Positions 1,531 through 31,921 of a DNA stretch of 35,484 nucleotides are shown here, piece after piece. Numbering within the stretch: position 1 is the first letter of the stretch; the number at the start of each line of letters is the position of its first letter. The notes beneath the pieces were generated by a model. The model had not been told where the DNA came from. It searched no databases and saw only the letters and a program-made list of their open reading frames with translations. A program made the translations under genes and the position numbers. The stretch comes from an uncultured Candidatus Saccharibacteria bacterium. GTDB lineage: Bacteria; Patescibacteriota; Minisyncoccia; Phycocordibacterales; UBA9973. The DNA is taken from assembly GCA_964596395.1 (NCBI GenBank), contig CAZQSY010000007.1, positions 1 to 35,484 on the forward strand, given 5' to 3'.

Positions 1531-2592
1531 ATGACCAACGGAAAAATTGCCAGATTTTTACTTGAACACAACAAGGAACAGAGTGAAATTTATCGCAGTC
1601 CCGACGAGACGCTGGCCCGCCGGCAGTATAGAGCGTCGCATCCGACCGAGATTGCCGCGCTTAAATGCATGGACGGGCGCTTGAATTTGCCGATTATCAC
1701 CAAGACGCCGTGGGGTATAATTCAGCCCTTCAGAAACGTGGGAGGCGCTTTTGATTTTGGCTGGCCGTTTTTCGGACAGCTCATTCTTGATTGGGTGGGC
1801 TACTCTACGATGCGCGCCCGCGATTGCGTGCTGCTCATCACTTACCATTGGTCTAAAGGGGATGTACACAGAGGATGCAAAGGTTTTAACTATGACGTGC
1901 AGGCGGCGAGGGAACACACCGAAGGGCTGAAGAAACAAGCTGAGAGAATTTTTGGTGGTCGTCATTTTGTAGTTTATCCGATTCAGATTGGAGTTGAAAC
2001 TGATGAGGACGCGATAACGCTTCATGGTAGAGATGGAGATGCTTTAAATCTGTCCCAGATTGGCAGTTTATCTCCAGAAGAAATGCGGATTATGCTTGAA
2101 AAATTGTACCCCGACATGAAGCCAAAAATGATAGACGACCTTTTGCCGCTGGTGCTGGGCAACATAAAACACATAGACGAGATTAGAAAACTCAACCGTC
2201 CGGCCAGGGCGGTCGAACACAGCGAAGACACCATCGCGCTCGGACGCGGATTCAGCTGGCTGCATATCCCGAATAAAGCGCTGATTATCGGGCCTTATAG
2301 CTATGATTTGGCGCAGCCGGTTGCCACCGCGGCAAAAATTGTTTTGGATAATTTGAACAAAGGACGGATTCCAAAAGGGGATGGAGCGGTTCTGATGGTG
2401 TCGGCTCTTTATCGCGAAGCGAGCGGCCCCGAGCGCCCCGCCGCCGTAGAAAAAGCGGATTCTCTGGCGCGTTTTGCGGTAGAGACGGTCAAAAGAGAAG
2501 TCCCCGAGCTTATGCCGCATCTTTCTGTCTTGGTCGGTACGGTTGATTCGGACACGATGTTTTTTACCAAGCAGGAATCGGTGAGCCGGTAA
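1531..2592 (+). CDS. Hypothetical protein with a beta-carbonic-anhydrase-like zinc-site motif set
   Basis: 353-aa ORF. Motifs: C46-M-D48-G-R50 (nt 1666-1680), then FRNVGG, then H113-R-G-C116 (nt 1867-1878). This matches the order CxDxR ... RNxG ... HxxC of beta-class carbonic anhydrases. The length and remaining sequence are atypical for that family. Confidence 0.6.
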   Translation: MTNGKIARFLLEHNKEQSEIYRSPDETLARRQYRASHPTEIAALKCMDGRLNLPIITKTPWGIIQPFRNVGGAFDFGWPFFGQLILDWVGYSTMRARDCVLLITYHWSKGDVHRGCKGFNYDVQAAREHTEGLKKQAERIFGGRHFVVYPIQIGVETDEDAITLHGRDGDALNLSQIGSLSPEEMRIMLEKLYPDMKPKMIDDLLPLVLGNIKHIDEIRKLNRPARAVEHSEDTIALGRGFSWLHIPNKALIIGPYSYDLAQPVATAAKIVLDNLNKGRIPKGDGAVLMVSALYREASGPERPAAVEKADSLARFAVETVKREVPELMPHLSVLVGTVDSDTMFFTKQESVSR

Positions 2593-3696: not shown

Positions 3697-4911
3697 TTAA
3701 TTTTTCTTCCTTCTCAAAAAGGCCGGTACGGCGCTCCAGTCGTCTCCGTCATCGTCTATGATTATTTCCTCTTTTTCTTTTTTATCTTTGTCGCCCGTCT
3801 TCTTGATAAAATCGGGAATTTCCTTGTTTTCTTTTACGCCCATCCGGTCGGCTATGGCGCTGTGTATTTCCTTCACCGCCTGGTTTTTGTTTTCTTCCTT
3901 AAGCGTCGTCTGGTTTAAGATATTCGTGCCGCTAAAAAGATTTTTGCGGGGAACTTCGCCGGCGAAACTGGTGGCGATTACCGTGACTTTCAGTTCGCCT
4001 TTTTTCATGTTCTCGTCGTGTATTGTGCCGAAGATTACTTTCGCGTCTTTGTCGATGGATTCAGTTATGATTTTCGCTGCTTCCTGGATTTCGTGAATCG
4101 TTATGTCGTCGCCGCCCGAAATGGCAAAGAGCACGCCCTTGGCGCCGTTAATTGAAATTTCAAGCAGGGGAGAGTTGATTGCCTGGGTCGCGGCTTTGGA
4201 TGCCCGGTCGTCTCCGGCGGCAAGCCCTATACCCATCAGCGCGCTTCCGGCTTCGGCCATGACGGCGCGAATATCGGCGAAGTCGACGTTGATTATTCCC
4301 GGGGTCGTAATTAGGTCAGAGATTCCTTCTACCGCCTGTTTCAATACGTTGTCGCATTGAGCGAAAGCGTCGCGGAAGTTCGTGGTTTTATCGGCGAGCT
4401 GTATCAGTTTGTCATTCGGGATTATGATAATCGCGTCAACCTCTTTTGAAAGTTCTTCGATTCCTTTCTCGGCGATTTTCAGGCGCTGGTTTCCTTCGAA
4501 GAAGAAGGGCTTGGTAACCACGGCCACAGTGAGGATGCCCTGCTCTTTAGCCGCGCGCGCCACTATCGGCGCCGCGCCGGTGCCGGTGCCGCCGCCCATG
4601 CCGCAGGCGATGAAAACCATGTCCGCGCCTTTCATTACGTCTTGGATTTCCGATTTTGTTTCTTCGGCGGCCTTCTTGCCGACTTCCGGATTCATGCCGG
4701 CGCCCAGGCCCTTGGTCAGGTTTTTACCGATGTGAATTTTCTTTTCAGCCAGCGAATGATGCAGGTCCTGCGTGTCGGTATTCATGCAGATAAAGGTTAC
4801 CCCCTTGACCTTTGAGTTTATCATGTGGTTGACGGCATTCTTGCCGGAGCCGCCGATGCCGATAACCATGATGCGGGCGAAGCTTTCTATCTCTGGGTTT
4901 AATTTGGGCAT
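3697..4911 (-). CDS. ftsZ: Cell division GTPase FtsZ
   Basis: Tubulin signature GGGTGTGAAP, N-terminal GIGGSGKNAVNHM, and the conserved C-terminal peptide DDWSAVPAFLRRKK. Confidence 0.97.
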   Translation of the reverse strand: MPKLNPEIESFARIMVIGIGGSGKNAVNHMINSKVKGVTFICMNTDTQDLHHSLAEKKIHIGKNLTKGLGAGMNPEVGKKAAEETKSEIQDVMKGADMVFIACGMGGGTGTGAAPIVARAAKEQGILTVAVVTKPFFFEGNQRLKIAEKGIEELSKEVDAIIIIPNDKLIQLADKTTNFRDAFAQCDNVLKQAVEGISDLITTPGIINVDFADIRAVMAEAGSALMGIGLAAGDDRASKAATQAINSPLLEISINGAKGVLFAISGGDDITIHEIQEAAKIITESIDKDAKVIFGTIHDENMKKGELKVTVIATSFAGEVPRKNLFSGTNILNQTTLKEENKNQAVKEIHSAIADRMGVKENKEIPDFIKKTGDKDKKEKEEIIIDDDGDDWSAVPAFLRRKKN

Positions 4912-16555: not shown

Positions 16556-16630
16556 CTATTCCTCTTCCCTCGGCTTCTCGAGTGAAATCGCCGACAGTTC
16601 GGGCGAGGTGCCGGAGATGCTGAGTAGGTC
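16556..16630 (-). pseudogene. Orphan duplicate of the rmuC 3' end (last 24 codons plus stop); left direct repeat of the hicBA cassette
   Basis: By hand alignment, 68 of 75 nt are identical to 17136-17210, including a 49-nt perfect core (16566-16614 = 17146-17194). It translates in frame to DLLSISGTSPELSAISLEKPREEE*, against rmuC DVLRIAGTSPELSAISLEKPREEE*. Confidence 0.85.
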
Positions 16631-16651
16631 TTGCCTAACGCAAACGCAAGA

Positions 16652-17135: not shown

Positions 17136-18206
17136 TTATTCCTCCTCCCTCGGCTTCTCGAGTGAAATCGCCGACAGTTCGGGCGAGGTGCCGGCGATGC
17201 GGAGGACATCTTTGTCAATTTTCTTCAGTTCTTTGTTCGAGGCGTTGTAGTGGTTTACCACCGTACCCAAGGCATTGCCGAGTTTACCGTGATACTCGTC
17301 GTATGACTTCAGGTGTTTGCCGAGTTCTTCAACCCTTTTGATTATTTCTTTGGCCGATTCTTCGATTTGCAGGGCTTTCAGGCCTTGCAGAACAGTTTGT
17401 AAGTAAGCGAGGAAAGAAGTGGGGGAAGTGATAATAACTTTATATTTTCCGGCCGCGCGCTGAATAAGATTTTCGGAGCTTTCCTCGGTGGCCCCAACCT
17501 TGTTTGTCAGTAAGTCATAATAAATCGCTTCGTGCGGGATGAACATAAAGGCAAAGTCGGTAGTACCGCGCGAGGGCTGTATATATTTTGATGTTTCTAC
17601 GATTCTGTTTTTCAAATCATTCACGAAAATCGTTTCAAGTTTTTTCTTTTCGGCGGGGTCTCTTTCTTCGGCCATTTTGTTGTAGTTTTCAAGCGAGAAT
17701 TTTGAGTCAATCGGGATGATTTTATCTTTCACGAAAACAGCGGCGTCTACGATGGTCTCGTCGGGAAAGGCGTACTGCATCTGGTAGCTTCCGGGTGGCA
17801 AAACATTTTTTAGAACCGTCTCAAGATAATATTCGCCGAGGATTCCGCGCTGTTTCGGATTTTTCAATATATCCTGCAGGTTTTGCAGCTGGTCGGCGAA
17901 AGATATGACTTGCTTGTTGGTCTCATCCAGCCGGGTCAAGCGCTCGGTCACGTCGCGGATTATTTTGTTGGATTCGCTTGAGTGGAATTTAAGGCTTTCG
18001 TTTACCTGCTTGTGCGTTTCGCCGATTTTCTGGTCCACCGTGCGCGAAAGCTCATTCAACTGCTGGAGTATCAGCGTAAGCCCAGTGTCGTTTTTGCCGC
18101 CCTTCTTACCAAGCAAGAGATATACAATAATCCCTCCCGTCAAGATTGCTATGATTATCAGTAAGATATTTTCCATGAATGTTACGTAATGTATTACGTA
18201 ATACAT
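17136..18206 (-). CDS. rmuC: DNA recombination protein RmuC
   Basis: N-terminal TM helix, a long coiled coil, then an RmuC nuclease-like region (GILGEYYLETVL, VDAAVFVKDKIIPIDSKF, FMFIPHEAIY). ATG 18206 overlaps the upstream stop (TAATG). An alternative ATG is at 18176. Confidence 0.88.
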   Translation of the reverse strand: MYYVIHYVTFMENILLIIIAILTGGIIVYLLLGKKGGKNDTGLTLILQQLNELSRTVDQKIGETHKQVNESLKFHSSESNKIIRDVTERLTRLDETNKQVISFADQLQNLQDILKNPKQRGILGEYYLETVLKNVLPPGSYQMQYAFPDETIVDAAVFVKDKIIPIDSKFSLENYNKMAEERDPAEKKKLETIFVNDLKNRIVETSKYIQPSRGTTDFAFMFIPHEAIYYDLLTNKVGATEESSENLIQRAAGKYKVIITSPTSFLAYLQTVLQGLKALQIEESAKEIIKRVEELGKHLKSYDEYHGKLGNALGTVVNHYNASNKELKKIDKDVLRIAGTSPELSAISLEKPREEE

Positions 18207-19516: not shown

Positions 19517-20149
19517 TCCTACATGCATACTGTACAAATCTTAAACAATCTGGTGGGCGAATATCATACGCTGGCCTATCTGGTAATTTTTCTCGGCCTC
19601 ATTTTTGAGGGCGAGGTGGTGGTGCTCACTGCGGGGGTGTTGTCTCAGCTCGGGGCGCTCAATTTTTGGCCTTCGCTCGTTTTCATTTTTGCCGGGGGTA
19701 TGGTCAAGACCTTCGGCGGGTATTGGCTTGGCACATGGTTCGCCAGAAGGTATAAAGAAAATCATTTTCTGCGCGCGCTCGAAAGAAGAATTCTGTATTT
19801 CATGCCGAATTTTCGGAAGAAACCCTTCTGGTCTATTTTTCTTTCCAAGTTTATAATGGGAGTGAATTATCTGGTAGTTGTTTTTTCGGGATACCAGAAA
19901 GTAAATTTGAAAAATTATTTGCGGGCGGAAATTCTTTCAACACTCATTTGGGCGCCGGCTTTGCTCGCTCTCGGGTTCTTTTTCAGTCAGACGGCTCTGT
20001 CTATCACCAAAGAAATCGGAAAGTTTTCGCTGATAGTTGTTATCTTTGTGGCCGTGTTTTTGCTTTTCGATAAACTGGCCGCGACTTTTTACCGGGTGGT
20101 GCAGTATATAAAAAGTTTTAGCAATGGAAATGGAAACAGAGAAAAATAA
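19508..20149 (+). CDS. DedA/VTT-family membrane protein
   Basis: Multi-TM protein with the DedA-type motif YLVIFLGLIFEGE. The start is uncertain (GTG 19508 or ATG 19523), and neither has a clear SD. Confidence 0.75.
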   Translation: MFASYMHTVQILNNLVGEYHTLAYLVIFLGLIFEGEVVVLTAGVLSQLGALNFWPSLVFIFAGGMVKTFGGYWLGTWFARRYKENHFLRALERRILYFMPNFRKKPFWSIFLSKFIMGVNYLVVVFSGYQKVNLKNYLRAEILSTLIWAPALLALGFFFSQTALSITKEIGKFSLIVVIFVAVFLLFDKLAATFYRVVQYIKSFSNGNGNREK

Positions 20150-21059
20150 AAAAATATTGGTGACACACAACGGGTCTTTTCACGCCGATGATATTTTTGC
20201 CGCCGCGGCGCTTTCTTTGTATTTAGAAGGAAAGAGAGAAGATTTTGAAATAATCCGCACCCGCGACCCCGAAACGATAGAAAAAGGCGACTATGTTTTT
20301 GACATTGGCGGGATTTACGATCCCGAGAAAAACAGGTTCGACCACCACCAAAAGGGCGGAGCAGGCAAGTGGGAAGGCGGCCTGCCGGCGCAGGCGGGGA
20401 TAGAGTACGCCGCCTTCGGTCTGGTTTGGAAAAAGTTCGGACTGGGGCTTGCCGGCTCGGAAGAAGCAAAAGAAATCATAGACGAAAAACTGGTAGCTCC
20501 GATAGACGCGGGCGACAACGGCTTGGATTTAGAGGAAGAAGAAAGCGAGCACGCGATTTCTCCTTATTACATTCAGCATTTTTTTTCTTCGATGAGGCCG
20601 ACTTGGCGCGAAGCGAACATAAGCGCCGACGAAATGTTTTTAAAATGCGCGGAAGTGGCGAAAGAAATATTGCGCCGGGAAATTATTCAGGCAAAAGATT
20701 TTCTTTTGGCCGAAGAAAGAGTCGCGCATATTTATCGCGAGACCAAAGACAAACGGCTCATAATTCTAGACCAAGATTATCCGCACGAGTATGTTTTGAG
20801 AAATTTCCCCGAACCACTCTTTGTCGTGTATCCGAGGACCACCTACGGCACCTGGGGCGTGAAGGCCGTGCGCGATAATCCTAAAACATTCAAAAACCGT
20901 AAAAACTTTCCGGCTCACTGGGGTGGTTTGCGCGATGAAGAGCTTCAAAATGTTACCGGTGTGAAAGACGCTGTTTTTTGCCACAGAGGGCTTTTCTTGG
21001 CGGTGGCGAAATCCAAAGAAGGCGCGCTGGCACTGGCGAACCTCGCGTTGAAAAACTGA
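20124..21059 (+). CDS. MYG1/UPF0160 family metal-dependent hydrolase
   Basis: VTHNGSFHADDIFA and NRFDHHQ motifs. 311 aa. Confidence 0.85.
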   Translation: MEMETEKNKKILVTHNGSFHADDIFAAAALSLYLEGKREDFEIIRTRDPETIEKGDYVFDIGGIYDPEKNRFDHHQKGGAGKWEGGLPAQAGIEYAAFGLVWKKFGLGLAGSEEAKEIIDEKLVAPIDAGDNGLDLEEEESEHAISPYYIQHFFSSMRPTWREANISADEMFLKCAEVAKEILRREIIQAKDFLLAEERVAHIYRETKDKRLIILDQDYPHEYVLRNFPEPLFVVYPRTTYGTWGVKAVRDNPKTFKNRKNFPAHWGGLRDEELQNVTGVKDAVFCHRGLFLAVAKSKEGALALANLALKN

Positions 21060-21064
21060 ATTGG

Positions 21065-21208
21065 GCACAAAGAAAATAAAAACCTAATTTTTTGTCGGTA
21101 CGGAATTTTTGAAGCTTTAAAATTCCTGAAGTTGGCTCGCCGTCCCTGCCTGCCGGCAGGCAGGGCTCGCCAAACCCCTTAAAAAATTTGTTTTTGTTTT
21201 CTTTGTGC
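21065..21208. repeat. 144-nt composite nested palindrome (MITE-like or structured-RNA-like) between the MYG1 gene and obg
   Basis: Outer arms GCACAAAGAAAATAAAAAC (21065-21083) / GTTTTTGTTTTCTTTGTGC (21190-21208), 18/19 complementary. A second pair is AATTTTTT (21086-21093) / AAAAAATT (21181-21188). Two inner hairpins: GGAATTTT...AAAATTCC (21102-21126) and the perfect 22-bp palindrome CCCTGCCTGCCGGCAGGCAGGG (21144-21165). Confidence 0.7.
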
Positions 21209-21233: not shown

Positions 21234-22244
21234 ATGGCTTTCATTGACGAAATAACGATACACGCCGAGGCGGGTAGGGGCGGCGACGGCGTGGTGAGAT
21301 GGCGCAAAGAAAAATTCGTGCCGAAAGGCGGACCGGCCGGCGGCGACGGCGGCCGGGGCGGCGATTTCTACGCGCGGGCGGTGCGGGATATTCACATACT
21401 TTCAAAGTACAAAGCAAAAAAAGAATTCAAAGCCGGGCGGGGAGAAGACGGCGCCAAAAAAAGTTTGCATGGAAAAAAAGGAGAGGACTTGTCGCTCGAC
21501 CTGCCGGTCGGCTGTGTAGTTACGAACATCGATTCGGGCGATAAATGGCAGCTCTTGACAGAAGGGGAAAAAATTCTGCTTCTCCGAGGCGGCTACGGCG
21601 GCTACGGTAACGAGCATTTTAAAAGTTCCACGAATGTTGCTCCGAAAGAATCGAATCTGGGGAAGGAGGGGGAACAGGGCAATTTTCTTATCGAGCTTGA
21701 ACTTTTTGCCGATGTCGGTCTGATAGGCCTGCCAAATGCCGGCAAATCGTCGCTTTTGAACGCGCTTACCAATGCGGAGGCCAAGGTCGGCGATTACGCT
21801 TTCACTACGCTCGACCCGAATTTGGGAAGTTTCTACGGCTACACAGTCGCCGATATCCCCGGGCTTATCGAAGGCGCCAACGTCGGCAAGGGCTTGGGTG
21901 TGAAATTTTTGCGTCACATAAAACGCACGAAAATGCTCGCGCATTTGGTTTCTTTTGAAAATTTATCCCGCGGTTCGGGCGGAATGATGAAGGCCTATCA
22001 GGAAATACGCGCGGAATTGAAGAAATACGACGAGAAACAGAACTTGGCAGGAAATGGGCTTTGCGAAAAGGACGAAATCGTCGTTCTTACTAAATCAGAC
22101 ACAGTGGAAGACCCCACTCTGCGCGCTAAAAAAGTCAAGGAGTTTGAAAAATTAGGCGATAAGGTTTTTGAAATTTCTCTATTTGATGATAAGTCCGTAA
22201 AAGAATTTGCGGACAGCTTGATTAAAATTCTGCGTGAATTATGA
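21234..22244 (+). CDS. obg: GTPase Obg/CgtA
   Basis: Glycine-rich Obg fold (GGDGGRGG), G1 motif GLPNAGKSSL, DIPGLIEGA, and TKSD (NKxD-like). Confidence 0.95.
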   Translation: MAFIDEITIHAEAGRGGDGVVRWRKEKFVPKGGPAGGDGGRGGDFYARAVRDIHILSKYKAKKEFKAGRGEDGAKKSLHGKKGEDLSLDLPVGCVVTNIDSGDKWQLLTEGEKILLLRGGYGGYGNEHFKSSTNVAPKESNLGKEGEQGNFLIELELFADVGLIGLPNAGKSSLLNALTNAEAKVGDYAFTTLDPNLGSFYGYTVADIPGLIEGANVGKGLGVKFLRHIKRTKMLAHLVSFENLSRGSGGMMKAYQEIRAELKKYDEKQNLAGNGLCEKDEIVVLTKSDTVEDPTLRAKKVKEFEKLGDKVFEISLFDDKSVKEFADSLIKILREL

Positions 22245-31301: not shown

Positions 31302-31619
31302 ATGGCTAAAAAGCTATACGTAGGGGGTCTCCCTTACAGCACACAGGAAGATGCTCTTCGCGAGTATTTCTCCCAGGCCGGCAATGTTACGTCGGCTACT
31401 ATTATCATGGATAAAATGACTGGTCGTTCAAAGGGTTTCGGATTCGTTGAAATGTCAAACGATGATGAAGCGCTGAAGGCGATTGAAATGTTCCATGACA
31501 AGGAATTTGAGGGCCGCAAGCTGACGGTTAACGAAGCTCGCCCGATGGAATCCCGCCCGCCTCGTTCGCAGGGTTACTCAAACGGTAACGGCGGATACGG
31601 TGGCAGGAGAGAATACTAA
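31302..31619 (+). CDS. RRM-type RNA-binding protein with a Gly-rich tail
   Basis: RNP-2 LYVGGL, RNP-1 KGFGFVEM, and a C-terminal GYSNGNGGYGGRREY. Confidence 0.9.
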   Translation: MAKKLYVGGLPYSTQEDALREYFSQAGNVTSATIIMDKMTGRSKGFGFVEMSNDDEALKAIEMFHDKEFEGRKLTVNEARPMESRPPRSQGYSNGNGGYGGRREY

Positions 31620-31635
31620 ATTTCTTTCACAAAAC

Positions 31636-31663
31636 AAAAAAACCACTTCATAGTGGTTTTTTT
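31636..31663 (+). terminator. Rho-independent terminator after the RRM-protein gene
   Basis: AAAAAAACCACT-tcat-AGTGGTTTTTTT, a perfect 12-bp stem with a T-run. Confidence 0.8.
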
Positions 31664-31700
31664 GTTTCTTTTTTGTTATATTTTCCCCATTGAGTATTTC

Positions 31701-31757
31701 GAGCGTGTAGTTCAGTGGTACCTGCCTGCCGGTAGGCAGGGAACGCTGTCCTGAAAG
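31701..31757 (+). pseudogene. Truncated tRNA-Ile 5' half carrying a 20-nt palindromic insertion
   Basis: 31701-31720 and 31741-31754 are identical to nt 1-20 and 21-34 of the intact tRNA-Ile. They are split by CCTGCCTGCCGGTAGGCAGG (31721-31740). There is no 3' half. Confidence 0.85.
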
Positions 31758-31784
31758 CTTTGGTTGTTTTAAAATTTTAAAAAT

Positions 31785-31856
31785 GAGCGTGTAGTTCAGT
31801 GGTAGAACGCTGTCCTGATAAGACAGAGGTCGATGGTTCGATCCCATCCACGCTCA
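31785..31856 (+). tRNA. tRNA-Ile (anticodon GAU)
   Basis: Acceptor GAGCGTG/CACGCTC, D arm GTTC-AGTGGTA-GAAC, anticodon stem CTGTC/GACAG with loop CTGATAA, T arm GATGG-TTCGATC-CCATC. Confidence 0.92.
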
Positions 31857-31893
31857 CCGATTTGCATCTTGGATTTCTTTGCCCTATACTATA

Positions 31894-31921
31894 CAAAAGT
31901 CTCGCGGAGACTTTTGTTTTT
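31894..31921 (+). terminator. Rho-independent terminator after tRNA-Ile
   Basis: CAAAAGTCTC-gcg-GAGACTTTTG followed by TTTTT. Confidence 0.8.

Follow-up and report, generated by a model that had tools for sequence, protein, structure and literature searches.

Contig CAZQSY010000007.1 (35,484 nucleotides (nt); hereafter the window, by which we mean the whole 35.5-kb contig) comes from a Paceibacteria-type (Parcubacteria) bacterium and carries, directly upstream of an intact tRNA-Ile(GAU) gene, a truncated copy of the same gene that is interrupted by a 20-nt palindromic hairpin repeat, here termed PAL. The locus is probably the scar of a tRNA-targeting nuclease cassette that has lost its open reading frame (ORF). 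The same architecture recurs at many other tRNA genes, PAL is inserted into them with base precision, relatives of the host organism hold a single tRNA-Ile copy at the corresponding place, and in the full versions of the arrangement a gene for a minimal GIY-YIG nuclease stands between fragment and tRNA. The feature in the window is a relic, yet through it a very large pairing comes to light, apparently undescribed so far, between a universal 20-nt hairpin and a minimal GIY-YIG nuclease family that resides in tRNA genes. Comparison loci are cited below by our own handles (L006 and so forth).

The truncated copy, on the plus strand, begins with GAGCGTGTAGTTCAGTGGTA at positions 31701–31720, which corresponds to nt 1–20 of the tRNA and is identical to 31785–31804. 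PAL follows at 31721–31740 (CCTGCCTGCCGGTAGGCAGG, the variant with a G–T pair) and splits the fragment, whose second part at 31741–31757 (plus strand) consists of GAACGCTGTCCTGA, that is nt 21–34 (31741–31754), and of AAG (31755–31757), that is nt 36–38; T35 is deleted, and this 1-nt gap prolongs the match to nt 38, in the anticodon loop. When 31701–31720 and 31741–31754 are joined they give nt 1–34 of the intact gene, which is the sole ungapped match to this 34-mer within the window. An earlier note, made from the letters of the window alone, had described the two blocks with exactly 20 nt between them, the break in identity within the anticodon followed by 3 more nt after a 1-nt gap, and the start of the intact gene 28 nt past the end of similarity at 31757; our reading of the sequence agrees on each count and places that start at 31785. 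An AT-rich spacer of 30 nt (31755–31784, plus strand; AAGCTTTGGTTGTTTTAAAATTTTAAAAAT) occupies the place that a GIY-YIG ORF takes in related loci, and the intact, empty-site tRNA-Ile(GAU) runs from 31785 to 31858 on the plus strand (ARAGORN; 73.8 bits with Rfam). The latter is the only tRNA that ARAGORN and Rfam call at the locus, as tRNA-Ile(GAT), while the fragment finds no tRNA match even in a permissive search at E ≤ 10. No intron family is present in the window at Rfam gathering scores, or across 31600–31900 at E ≤ 10, and a tRNA intron does not describe the arrangement: the fragment is not continued by a 3′ half, and a complete separate tRNA follows.

PAL is inserted at the junction of D-loop and D-stem (GGTA^GAAC), as the earlier note had it, with no target duplication. 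Folded as single-stranded DNA the window copy is predicted to form an 8-base-pair stem with a CCGG loop and one G–T pair at −7 kcal/mol (−8 for the perfect form); the 10-base-pair hairpin with one G–U pair described previously is right about the single wobble pair but had counted the CCGG loop bases as paired. The proposal that the palindrome was inserted as a discrete unit is supported by sequence comparison, because filled and empty copies lie 84 nt apart, because the flanks are unrelated in at least 120 species and because PAL nests within itself. We scanned one genome per species (596 Gb) for the 20-mer, allowing the G/A and C/T variant pair, and found it in at least 120 species-genome stretches where our own calculation for the 596 Gb expects about two by chance. 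The 20-mer is thus clearly not unique to its two loci in the window; uniqueness would have spoken against the earlier claim. Its hosts are Patescibacteria lineages, Bacteroidota (among them isolates, e.g. Winogradskyella, Olivibacter and Flagellimonas), Omnitrophota, Planctomycetota, Nitrospirota, Chloroflexota, Bdellovibrionota and uncultured Gammaproteobacteria. Flanking sequences are unrelated among the listed sites, with no conserved base outside the 20-mer; PAL is nested within PAL, one base off centre, in L020, L026, L059 and L065, and in L111 it lies within the loop of a terminator-like hairpin, in L030, L101 and L070 within that of further palindromes. It is present in 48 IMG/VR viral stretches, and exact copies are absent from cultured phages (2.3 Gb) and from plasmids (7.3 Gb).

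These wide occurrences bear directly on the possibility that the tandem partial copy was created in assembly, through a chimeric or collapsed join. In favour of this, the window consists of one metagenome contig, and the databases contain no close relative of it. We nonetheless regard an artefact as very unlikely and give it next to no weight, because hundreds of independent assemblies have this 20-mer in other tRNA fragments, placed at the corresponding point of the D-loop; these share the architecture, stem from different projects and include isolates and one metagenome-assembled genome titled complete and curated.

PAL sites are depleted in long ORFs, which contain 33% of the sites and 84% of the bases. 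A direct repeat of at least 7 nt (one mismatch allowed) abuts 7.7% of 181 PAL sites and 0.4% of controls, with lengths of 7–14 nt; a fixed target-site duplication, for which the earlier note proposed tabulating the flanks, is rejected on these variable lengths, and the tRNA insertions have no such repeats at all. Direct repeats of at least 10 nt occur near 12% of PAL sites against 3.4%, a modest link of PAL to local duplications. As a general rule, targeting of hairpin loops is weak (12.7% against 7.4%). A literature search on the 20-mer or its 12-mer halves returned nothing relevant.

The state of the locus before insertion can be read from relatives, although the ATP synthase subunit a (atpB) of the window is at most 79% identical to anything on record and the RRM protein beside the locus has no exact match on record. 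Three relatives (L121, L124 and L127) share the gene order of the window, namely L31, RF1, RRM protein, terminator, tRNA-Ile(GAU), atpI and atpB. At the syntenic spot all three carry a single intact tRNA-Ile, without fragment and without PAL; this is the outcome of the synteny comparison that the earlier note had recommended. The sequence just 5′ of the window fragment (ttgttatatttt..attgag) is homologous to the region 5′ of the intact tRNA-Ile in L127 and L121, and the sequence 3′ of the window's intact tRNA is homologous to its counterpart in L121. Because native upstream homology adjoins the fragment, these alignments show that the fragment occupies the ancestral place and that the single-copy state is, by homology, the ancestral one. 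The 84 extra nt in the window are made up of PAL (20), the 34-nt duplication and 30 nt of spacer. Separately, L121 has two small minus-strand ORFs (93 and 42 amino acids, no Pfam match) at 250–720, inserted between tRNA-Ile and atpI; the junction of tRNA-Ile and the atp genes varies within this lineage.

Among the species-level sites, 16 of about 128 listed have a tRNA gene within 400 nt of PAL, where about 4% would be expected from local tRNA density. A tRNA 5′ fragment with PAL in its D-arm region lies upstream of the same intact tRNA in L044 (Val), L006 (Leu), L052 (Lys), L093 (Leu, with two PALs) and L025 (Arg); PAL is also found in a fragment of tRNA-Lys (L171) and, in L146, beside the T-loop region in the 3′ part of a tRNA. 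On the viral contig L160 (2284) it sits in the variable loop of a full-length tRNA-Met, where a long extra arm might be tolerated, and the related viral contig L131 (8616) has lost the T-arm behind PAL. When metagenomes were scanned for TCAGT(N)GGTA followed by PAL, the exact insertion context of the window, at least 128 sites on at least 120 contigs were obtained. A same-strand tRNA lies downstream of PAL at 93 of the 128 listed D-loop sites. Full cassettes make up 61 of the 128: an ORF of about 80 amino acids for a GIY-YIG protein starts 5–57 nt behind PAL and stops at, or 10 nt into, an intact gene for the same tRNA. Most of these ORFs use as stop codon the TAG of tRNA nt 8–10, and thus end 10 nt within the tRNA.

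Short forms, which like the window have no ORF, account for at least 33 unique loci among the listed D-loop sites. They are built from fragment nt 1–20, PAL, 3–17 more tRNA bases, a 6–90-nt spacer and the intact tRNA; the tRNA-Ile short forms L243 and L182 end in ..CCTGA, the same as the window fragment. The duplication starts no more than 3 nt from tRNA +1 in 40 of 48 loci (no more than 2 nt in 12 of 14 short forms), and dozens of related loci have their fragment ends clustered at nt 33–38, in the anticodon loop. Many short-form fragments have an acceptor stem that differs from that of the adjacent tRNA.

The long gaps (~250–300 nt) of the related loci, not of the window itself, encode a bare GIY-YIG domain of 77–87 amino acids that matches PF01541 only, along almost its full length (Pfam; E 1e-14 to 5e-17). 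The family comprises 7707 proteins at E ≤ 1e-8 among 8000 candidates scored, and its named source organisms include Chitinophagaceae, Cyclobacteriaceae, Salibacteraceae, Flavobacteriales, Patescibacteria and Paceibacterota. To approach the association from the side of the protein, seven family members were picked on contig size and taxon, blind to PAL. All seven have an exact PAL within about 150 nt and an ORF that adjoins a tRNA; the ORF abuts or overlaps the tRNA start in five, in L303 the tRNA begins 14 nt past the ORF, and in L313 the ORF comes after an intact tRNA. PAL lies on both sides of the GIY-YIG gene in L306; L306, L308 and L312 have a second full-length tRNA copy downstream that is split by PAL; and in L313 the intact tRNA and the ORF are enclosed by the two PAL-bearing halves of an older copy. 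The same protein-first scan of viral contigs found only three loci, each with PAL or a diverged PAL, and tblastn of the nuclease against plasmids gave no match. ORF clustering of 168 PAL loci detected no recurrent gene family near PAL in bacterial loci; the small GIY-YIG gene then emerged as the recurring neighbour. PAL is the companion hairpin repeat of this nuclease family, and the association joins PAL, nuclease and tRNA. The nucleases are only about 50% identical to one another, yet PAL is invariant. Strict tRNA-specific nuclease lineages were considered and rejected, since the proteins cluster only weakly by tRNA type, with 53.8% identity against 51.3% and a nearest neighbour at the same tRNA in 22 of 40 cases.

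Two loci extend the pairing beyond tRNA genes. At L089 (3700–4300) a restriction-specificity gene of hsdS type contains a GIY-YIG domain in frame, and PAL precedes the junction by 15 nt; the pairing of PAL and nuclease is therefore not restricted to tRNA targets; a degenerate PAL lies farther upstream (3720–3750), and the combined insertion leaves the host reading frame open. At L278 (~600–1000, oriented) a family ORF is flanked by ~50-nt direct repeats of a non-tRNA target that include the start codon of the downstream gene, and duplication of the 5′ part of the target is therefore not limited to tRNAs either.

We suggest the following course of events. A small mobile cassette would have entered the anticodon loop together with a replacement 5′ part, such that a whole tRNA was rebuilt downstream and the truncated tRNA-Ile copy in the window is the displaced 5′ part of the original gene. 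The spacer of the window would once have contained the ORF, which was later deleted. In full cassettes the gene of about 80 codons between fragment and rebuilt tRNA appears positioned for read-through from the tRNA promoter. The cassette may spread by break repair or recombination with the tRNA sequence as homology, and homology-based break repair would yield both the order fragment–ORF–tRNA and the native upstream sequence next to the fragment. The D-loop of the fragment, now dispensable, receives PAL as one unit and shows no duplicated target. By analogy with the Ssn system described below, the nuclease may bind PAL folded on single-stranded DNA and cut nearby, and PAL copies could arise from nuclease activity combined with host repair. 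They may persist in the fragment because insertions there are harmless, and they might even bring a benefit, either by breaking a direct repeat that could delete the cassette or by keeping the fragment from mispairing or competing with the real tRNA in folding.

Several observations weigh against an origin from a nuclease cassette. The window holds no GIY-YIG gene or credible remnant in a search to E ≤ 50, and its 30-nt spacer compared with 40 cassette ORFs (Smith-Waterman with shuffles) gives a non-significant p of about 0.13. By the same method only L292 and L233 among the short forms have nominally significant ORF remnants in their spacers, and most do not. PAL-to-tRNA distances are bimodal (10–100 and 240–285 nt, few intermediates), a distribution not obviously predicted by random ORF decay. 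About 85% of the listed PAL copies are not near tRNAs or GIY genes, and GIY genes met in passing lack PAL or the fragment (L283, L268 and L112). The rebuilt tRNA retains the PAL target site, leaving the immunity of the cassette-bearing allele unexplained, and the nuclease activity of this subfamily is predicted by analogy only. On the spacer itself, the frame that ends at the tRNA TAG (nt 8–10) reads ..ESFGCFKILKMSV*, to be set beside ..KSGCGKEFLK.. of the nuclease family; this resemblance is suggestive only. A cassette DNA profile searched with nhmmer against the short-form spacers gave no usable matches. In favour of the cassette, the remnant in L292, significant in the comparison above, covers the REKYL-coding region of the ORF.

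The same observations could be accommodated if no ORF had ever been present in the spacer. A partial duplication might have arisen by replication slippage or template switching at a folded and heavily transcribed tRNA gene, together with 30 nt of filler, with PAL arriving later in trans in the harmless copy; the short forms would then be the primary product, or a landing pad for full cassettes. The lack of a significant ORF remnant in the window and in most short-form spacers, and the two separate length classes, fit such an origin, as do the PAL-free 5′ fragment in L112, the ORF-less fragments with other 15-nt hairpins in L118 (tRNA-Asp) and L063, the resemblance of L213 to serial tandem copies of fragment plus spacer, and the excess of direct repeats near PAL sites. 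It fits less well that short forms have the anatomy of full cassettes down to the start at tRNA +1, the end in the anticodon loop and the PAL site, that L292 and L233 have kept ORF remnants, and that none of the window's relatives has such a duplication. The differing acceptor stems of many short-form fragments point further to imported DNA rather than local slippage. We consider slippage a doubtful alternative, if one to be taken seriously, and continue to prefer the loss of a nuclease gene from a cassette.

An altogether different possibility is that fragment and PAL form a selected RNA leader of the tRNA-Ile precursor, serving as a processing or stability signal, and are not a scar. The position of the fragment between native upstream sequence and tRNA would allow co-transcription, and leader plus tRNA fold more stably than shuffles (z = −3.7). 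A sigma-70-type promoter scan found nothing convincing 5′ of the fragment or within the spacer. The predicted minimum-energy fold, however, pairs the acceptor strand of the fragment with the 3′ end of the tRNA, a mispairing that would do harm and bring no benefit. When PAL is read in the sense of the tRNA, the wobble-compatible G..T variant is commoner than A..C (9 to 2), but this bias is not significant. Given also that the leader is absent from the three relatives and that fragment length, PAL position and spacer vary among loci, we hold a selected leader to be unlikely.

The position of the fragment end recalls a further class of scars. Integrases classically target the anticodon loops of tRNAs (Williams 2002, as cited in PMC9897764), and the earlier note, pointing out that a duplicated 5′ half is the reverse of the usual 3′-half att scar, suggested a remnant of recombination at this loop. 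The end point is indeed meaningful, since dozens of loci end at nt 33–38, but a simple reversed att scar does not describe it: the copies are 30 nt apart and elsewhere a GIY-YIG gene fills the gap. Integrase scars duplicate the 3′ part of the tRNA and flank kilobases of element (PMC9897764). The window shares with them a partial tRNA copy beside an intact one, a break in the anticodon loop, where identity stops, and an element that would supply the displaced part; it differs in that the 5′ 34 nt are duplicated, the element measures 0.03–0.3 kb and no integrase-like recurrent gene family lies near PAL in the bacterial loci clustered. That a phage or island left an att scar here and was almost entirely deleted, PAL being an unrelated later insertion, has in our view only a slim chance of being correct, seeing that dozens of parallel loci hold a GIY-YIG ORF in the gap and no integrase-element DNA. 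Classical insertion sequences (IS) and miniature inverted-repeat transposable elements were likewise considered, and their terminal inverted repeats and fixed-length target duplication do not fit the locus.

The closest known system is Ssn, whose single-domain GIY-YIG proteins bind the NTS/SRM hairpin on single-stranded DNA and cut just 5′ of it (Chenal et al., Nat Commun 2025, PMC11893778). Ssn genes are typically flanked by the repeat, and an IS-like origin has been suggested, with mobility only hypothesised; the main text of that paper makes no mention of tRNA, Bacteroidota or Patescibacteria (PMC11893778). Its criteria for Ssn are blastp at E<1e-10 and 75% coverage to N. meningitidis SsnA (CAX49033.1), or cd10448 as top CDD match, and its search string for the SRM is HGTCWYN(0-2)YYVSBRHN(0-5)WNVSBRGN(0-2)RNCYNB (PMC11893778). 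For comparison we used a proxy family, A2, accepted only on the strength of its member P0312, which has an SRM/NTS-type repeat upstream (TGTCATTCCCGCGCAGGCGGGAACCCAG) that matches the published string. Against this proxy Ssn-type family, not SsnA itself, the PAL nuclease family scores 97.8% in hhalign (E 1e-12, 31% identity over 65 columns), and by these profiles it is homologous to, but distinct from, the proxy. Among solved proteins its best relatives are EF2693 and BH0048 of UPF0213 (E ~1e-10), together with SLX1.

Common to both systems are a single-domain GIY-YIG protein of about 80–95 amino acids and a short GC-rich hairpin repeat, which flanks the gene of this protein and is dispersed elsewhere in the genome as well, mostly between genes. 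The published hairpin binding and cutting make a plausible activity for the PAL nuclease. The SRM string is nevertheless found at 0 of 348 PAL sites (±12 nt), near none of the GIY genes of L300, L303, L306 and L308, and nowhere in the window. Unlike the Ssn repeat, PAL is a perfect, orientation-less 20-mer that is the same across phyla and not lineage-specific; unlike Ssn genes, the PAL nuclease genes lie within tRNA genes, where the 5′ fragment is duplicated and the ORF overlaps the tRNA. Filled and empty PAL sites, moreover, show that the repeat inserts as a unit, for which the Ssn paper has no counterpart.

A looser parallel exists with repetitive extragenic palindromic (REP) sequences and REPINs, short extragenic palindromes that fold on single-stranded DNA and cluster round a single-copy nuclease gene, the Y1 HUH protein RAYT, thought to spread them. 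RAYT works through a covalent intermediate, whereas a GIY-YIG protein is a hydrolase; PAL has no conserved GTAG/CGTC head; REPs are lineage-specific while PAL is identical across phyla; and PAL insertions are single ones, found within hairpin loops of tRNA origin and within PAL. With no such head, and with no recurrent gene family near PAL at the bacterial loci in the ORF clustering of the 168 loci, in which no RAYT-specific profile was run, PAL is not assigned to REP/RAYT, and the likeness is a functional analogy only.

A third point of comparison is the Seg proteins, which carry DNA-binding domains and cut double-stranded DNA, unlike the bare catalytic domain of about 80 amino acids found here. 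They are free-standing GIY-YIG homing endonucleases of phage T4, and SegB lies in a tRNA gene cluster (PMC2330249). The likeness to Seg and to 'intronless homing' consists in GIY-YIG genes placed among or next to tRNA genes without an intron, and break-repair spread via flanking homology would again give the order fragment–ORF–tRNA. Seg genes, on the other hand, lie between genes, not within a tRNA gene whose 5′ part is duplicated, and they have no accompanying hairpin repeat.

Tentatively, and with considerable doubt, we propose that PAL and the minimal GIY-YIG nuclease could together be a selfish system, so far undescribed, which has colonised the tRNA genes of Patescibacteria, Bacteroidota and other phyla. 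Its gene would use the tRNA promoter, be fused to the tRNA 5′ end and bring a replacement tRNA part or a whole tRNA, leaving the resident copy dead and studded with 20-nt hairpins spread by the nuclease. If this were true, PAL would be the smallest known unit of mobile DNA, and the cassette would be an addiction-like or drive-like device, because the sole working tRNA is the nuclease-linked copy. What is new relative to Ssn is the targeting of tRNAs with 5′ duplication, the fusion of the ORF to the tRNA and direct evidence of insertion of the repeat as a unit; the 2025 Ssn work left open how the repeats multiply and what role the gene has outside Neisseria. With filled and empty repeats side by side and hundreds of sites placed base-precisely in tRNA-derived hairpin loops and in PAL itself, the mobility of the repeat becomes directly testable. 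The arrangement is also a compact way for a nuclease gene to inhabit an essential tRNA gene free of introns, by duplicating the 5′ part and borrowing the TAG of the tRNA as stop. For a nuclease subfamily that is very large (thousands of proteins) and uncharacterised, PAL supplies a defined candidate recognition site of 20 nt, which is relevant to single-strand-DNA tools. PAL-split copies and fragments are an annotation trap in Patescibacteria and Bacteroidota; ARAGORN called two such copies 'tRNA-???'.

Hairpins other than PAL were seen in similar settings. Other 15-nt hairpins occupy the same D-loop spot in L286, L118 and L063. In L118 (upstream of tRNA-Asp, ~2420–2510, minus strand) a PAL-free tRNA 5′ fragment has the GC-rich hairpins TCGGCCCTAGGCCGA and TCAGTCTTGGGCTGA there, after nt 17, and in L063 (1784–1880) a PAL-free fragment has TCCGCCAGAGGCGGA, CCAGCCTAGGGCTGG and a longer palindrome; PAL may be one of several hairpin families. 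Further short palindromes recur near PAL in unrelated phyla, namely CCGCCAGCTGGCGG and CCCGATAGCTATCGGG (5 loci each), among L001–L120, e.g. in L014, L022 and L092. In L070 (~940) PAL lies in the centre of gtcattgcgaggagcg^cagcgacgaagcaatctcc, which by eye looks like the Ssn NTS/SRM repeat (CGTCATTCCCGCG..GCGGGAATC) and suggests one hairpin family inserted into another. In L306 (1079–1160) the T-loop of a PAL-split tRNA-Arg copy contains a longer hairpin (CCTGCCTGACTGCGTCAAGCAGGCAGG), in which the arms of PAL enclose a loop of 11 nt and which may be a PAL variant or precursor.

Some loci hold more than one fragment. L200, L216 and L220 (three D-loop PAL sites in ~500 nt) and L213 are tandem arrays of tRNA fragments with PAL in each, which point either to repeated invasion of a single tRNA gene or to its serial duplication. 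In L171 (820–1120) the GIY-YIG ORF is followed by a second tRNA-Lys 5′ fragment cut at the anticodon loop and then by an ORF with a Cys/His-rich motif (..KGGKCERCGYNRCLEALEFHHAD..), possibly an HNH-type cassette stacked on the first.

Elsewhere in the window, a terminator-like hairpin (31632–31667, plus strand) lies 3′ of the upstream RRM-protein ORF, at the start of the tRNA-Ile intergenic region. The window has two PAL copies where 100 shuffles have none, and no further copies or near-copies. The second, a perfect palindrome at 21145–21164, is intergenic between the ORFs 20124–21059 and 21234–22244 and is bracketed by an 8-nt direct repeat (GGCTCGCC) at 21134–21141 and 21164–21171. The flank of this copy (tgaagctttaaaatt, 21100–21125) and the spacer of the first (tgaaagctttggttgttttaaaatt, 31752–31775) share AAGCTTT and TTTAAAATT, which may be chance in AT-rich DNA. 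Unrelated to PAL, a 76-nt direct repeat, 92% identical, lies among minus-strand ORFs at 16557–16632 and 17137–17212, 580 nt apart.

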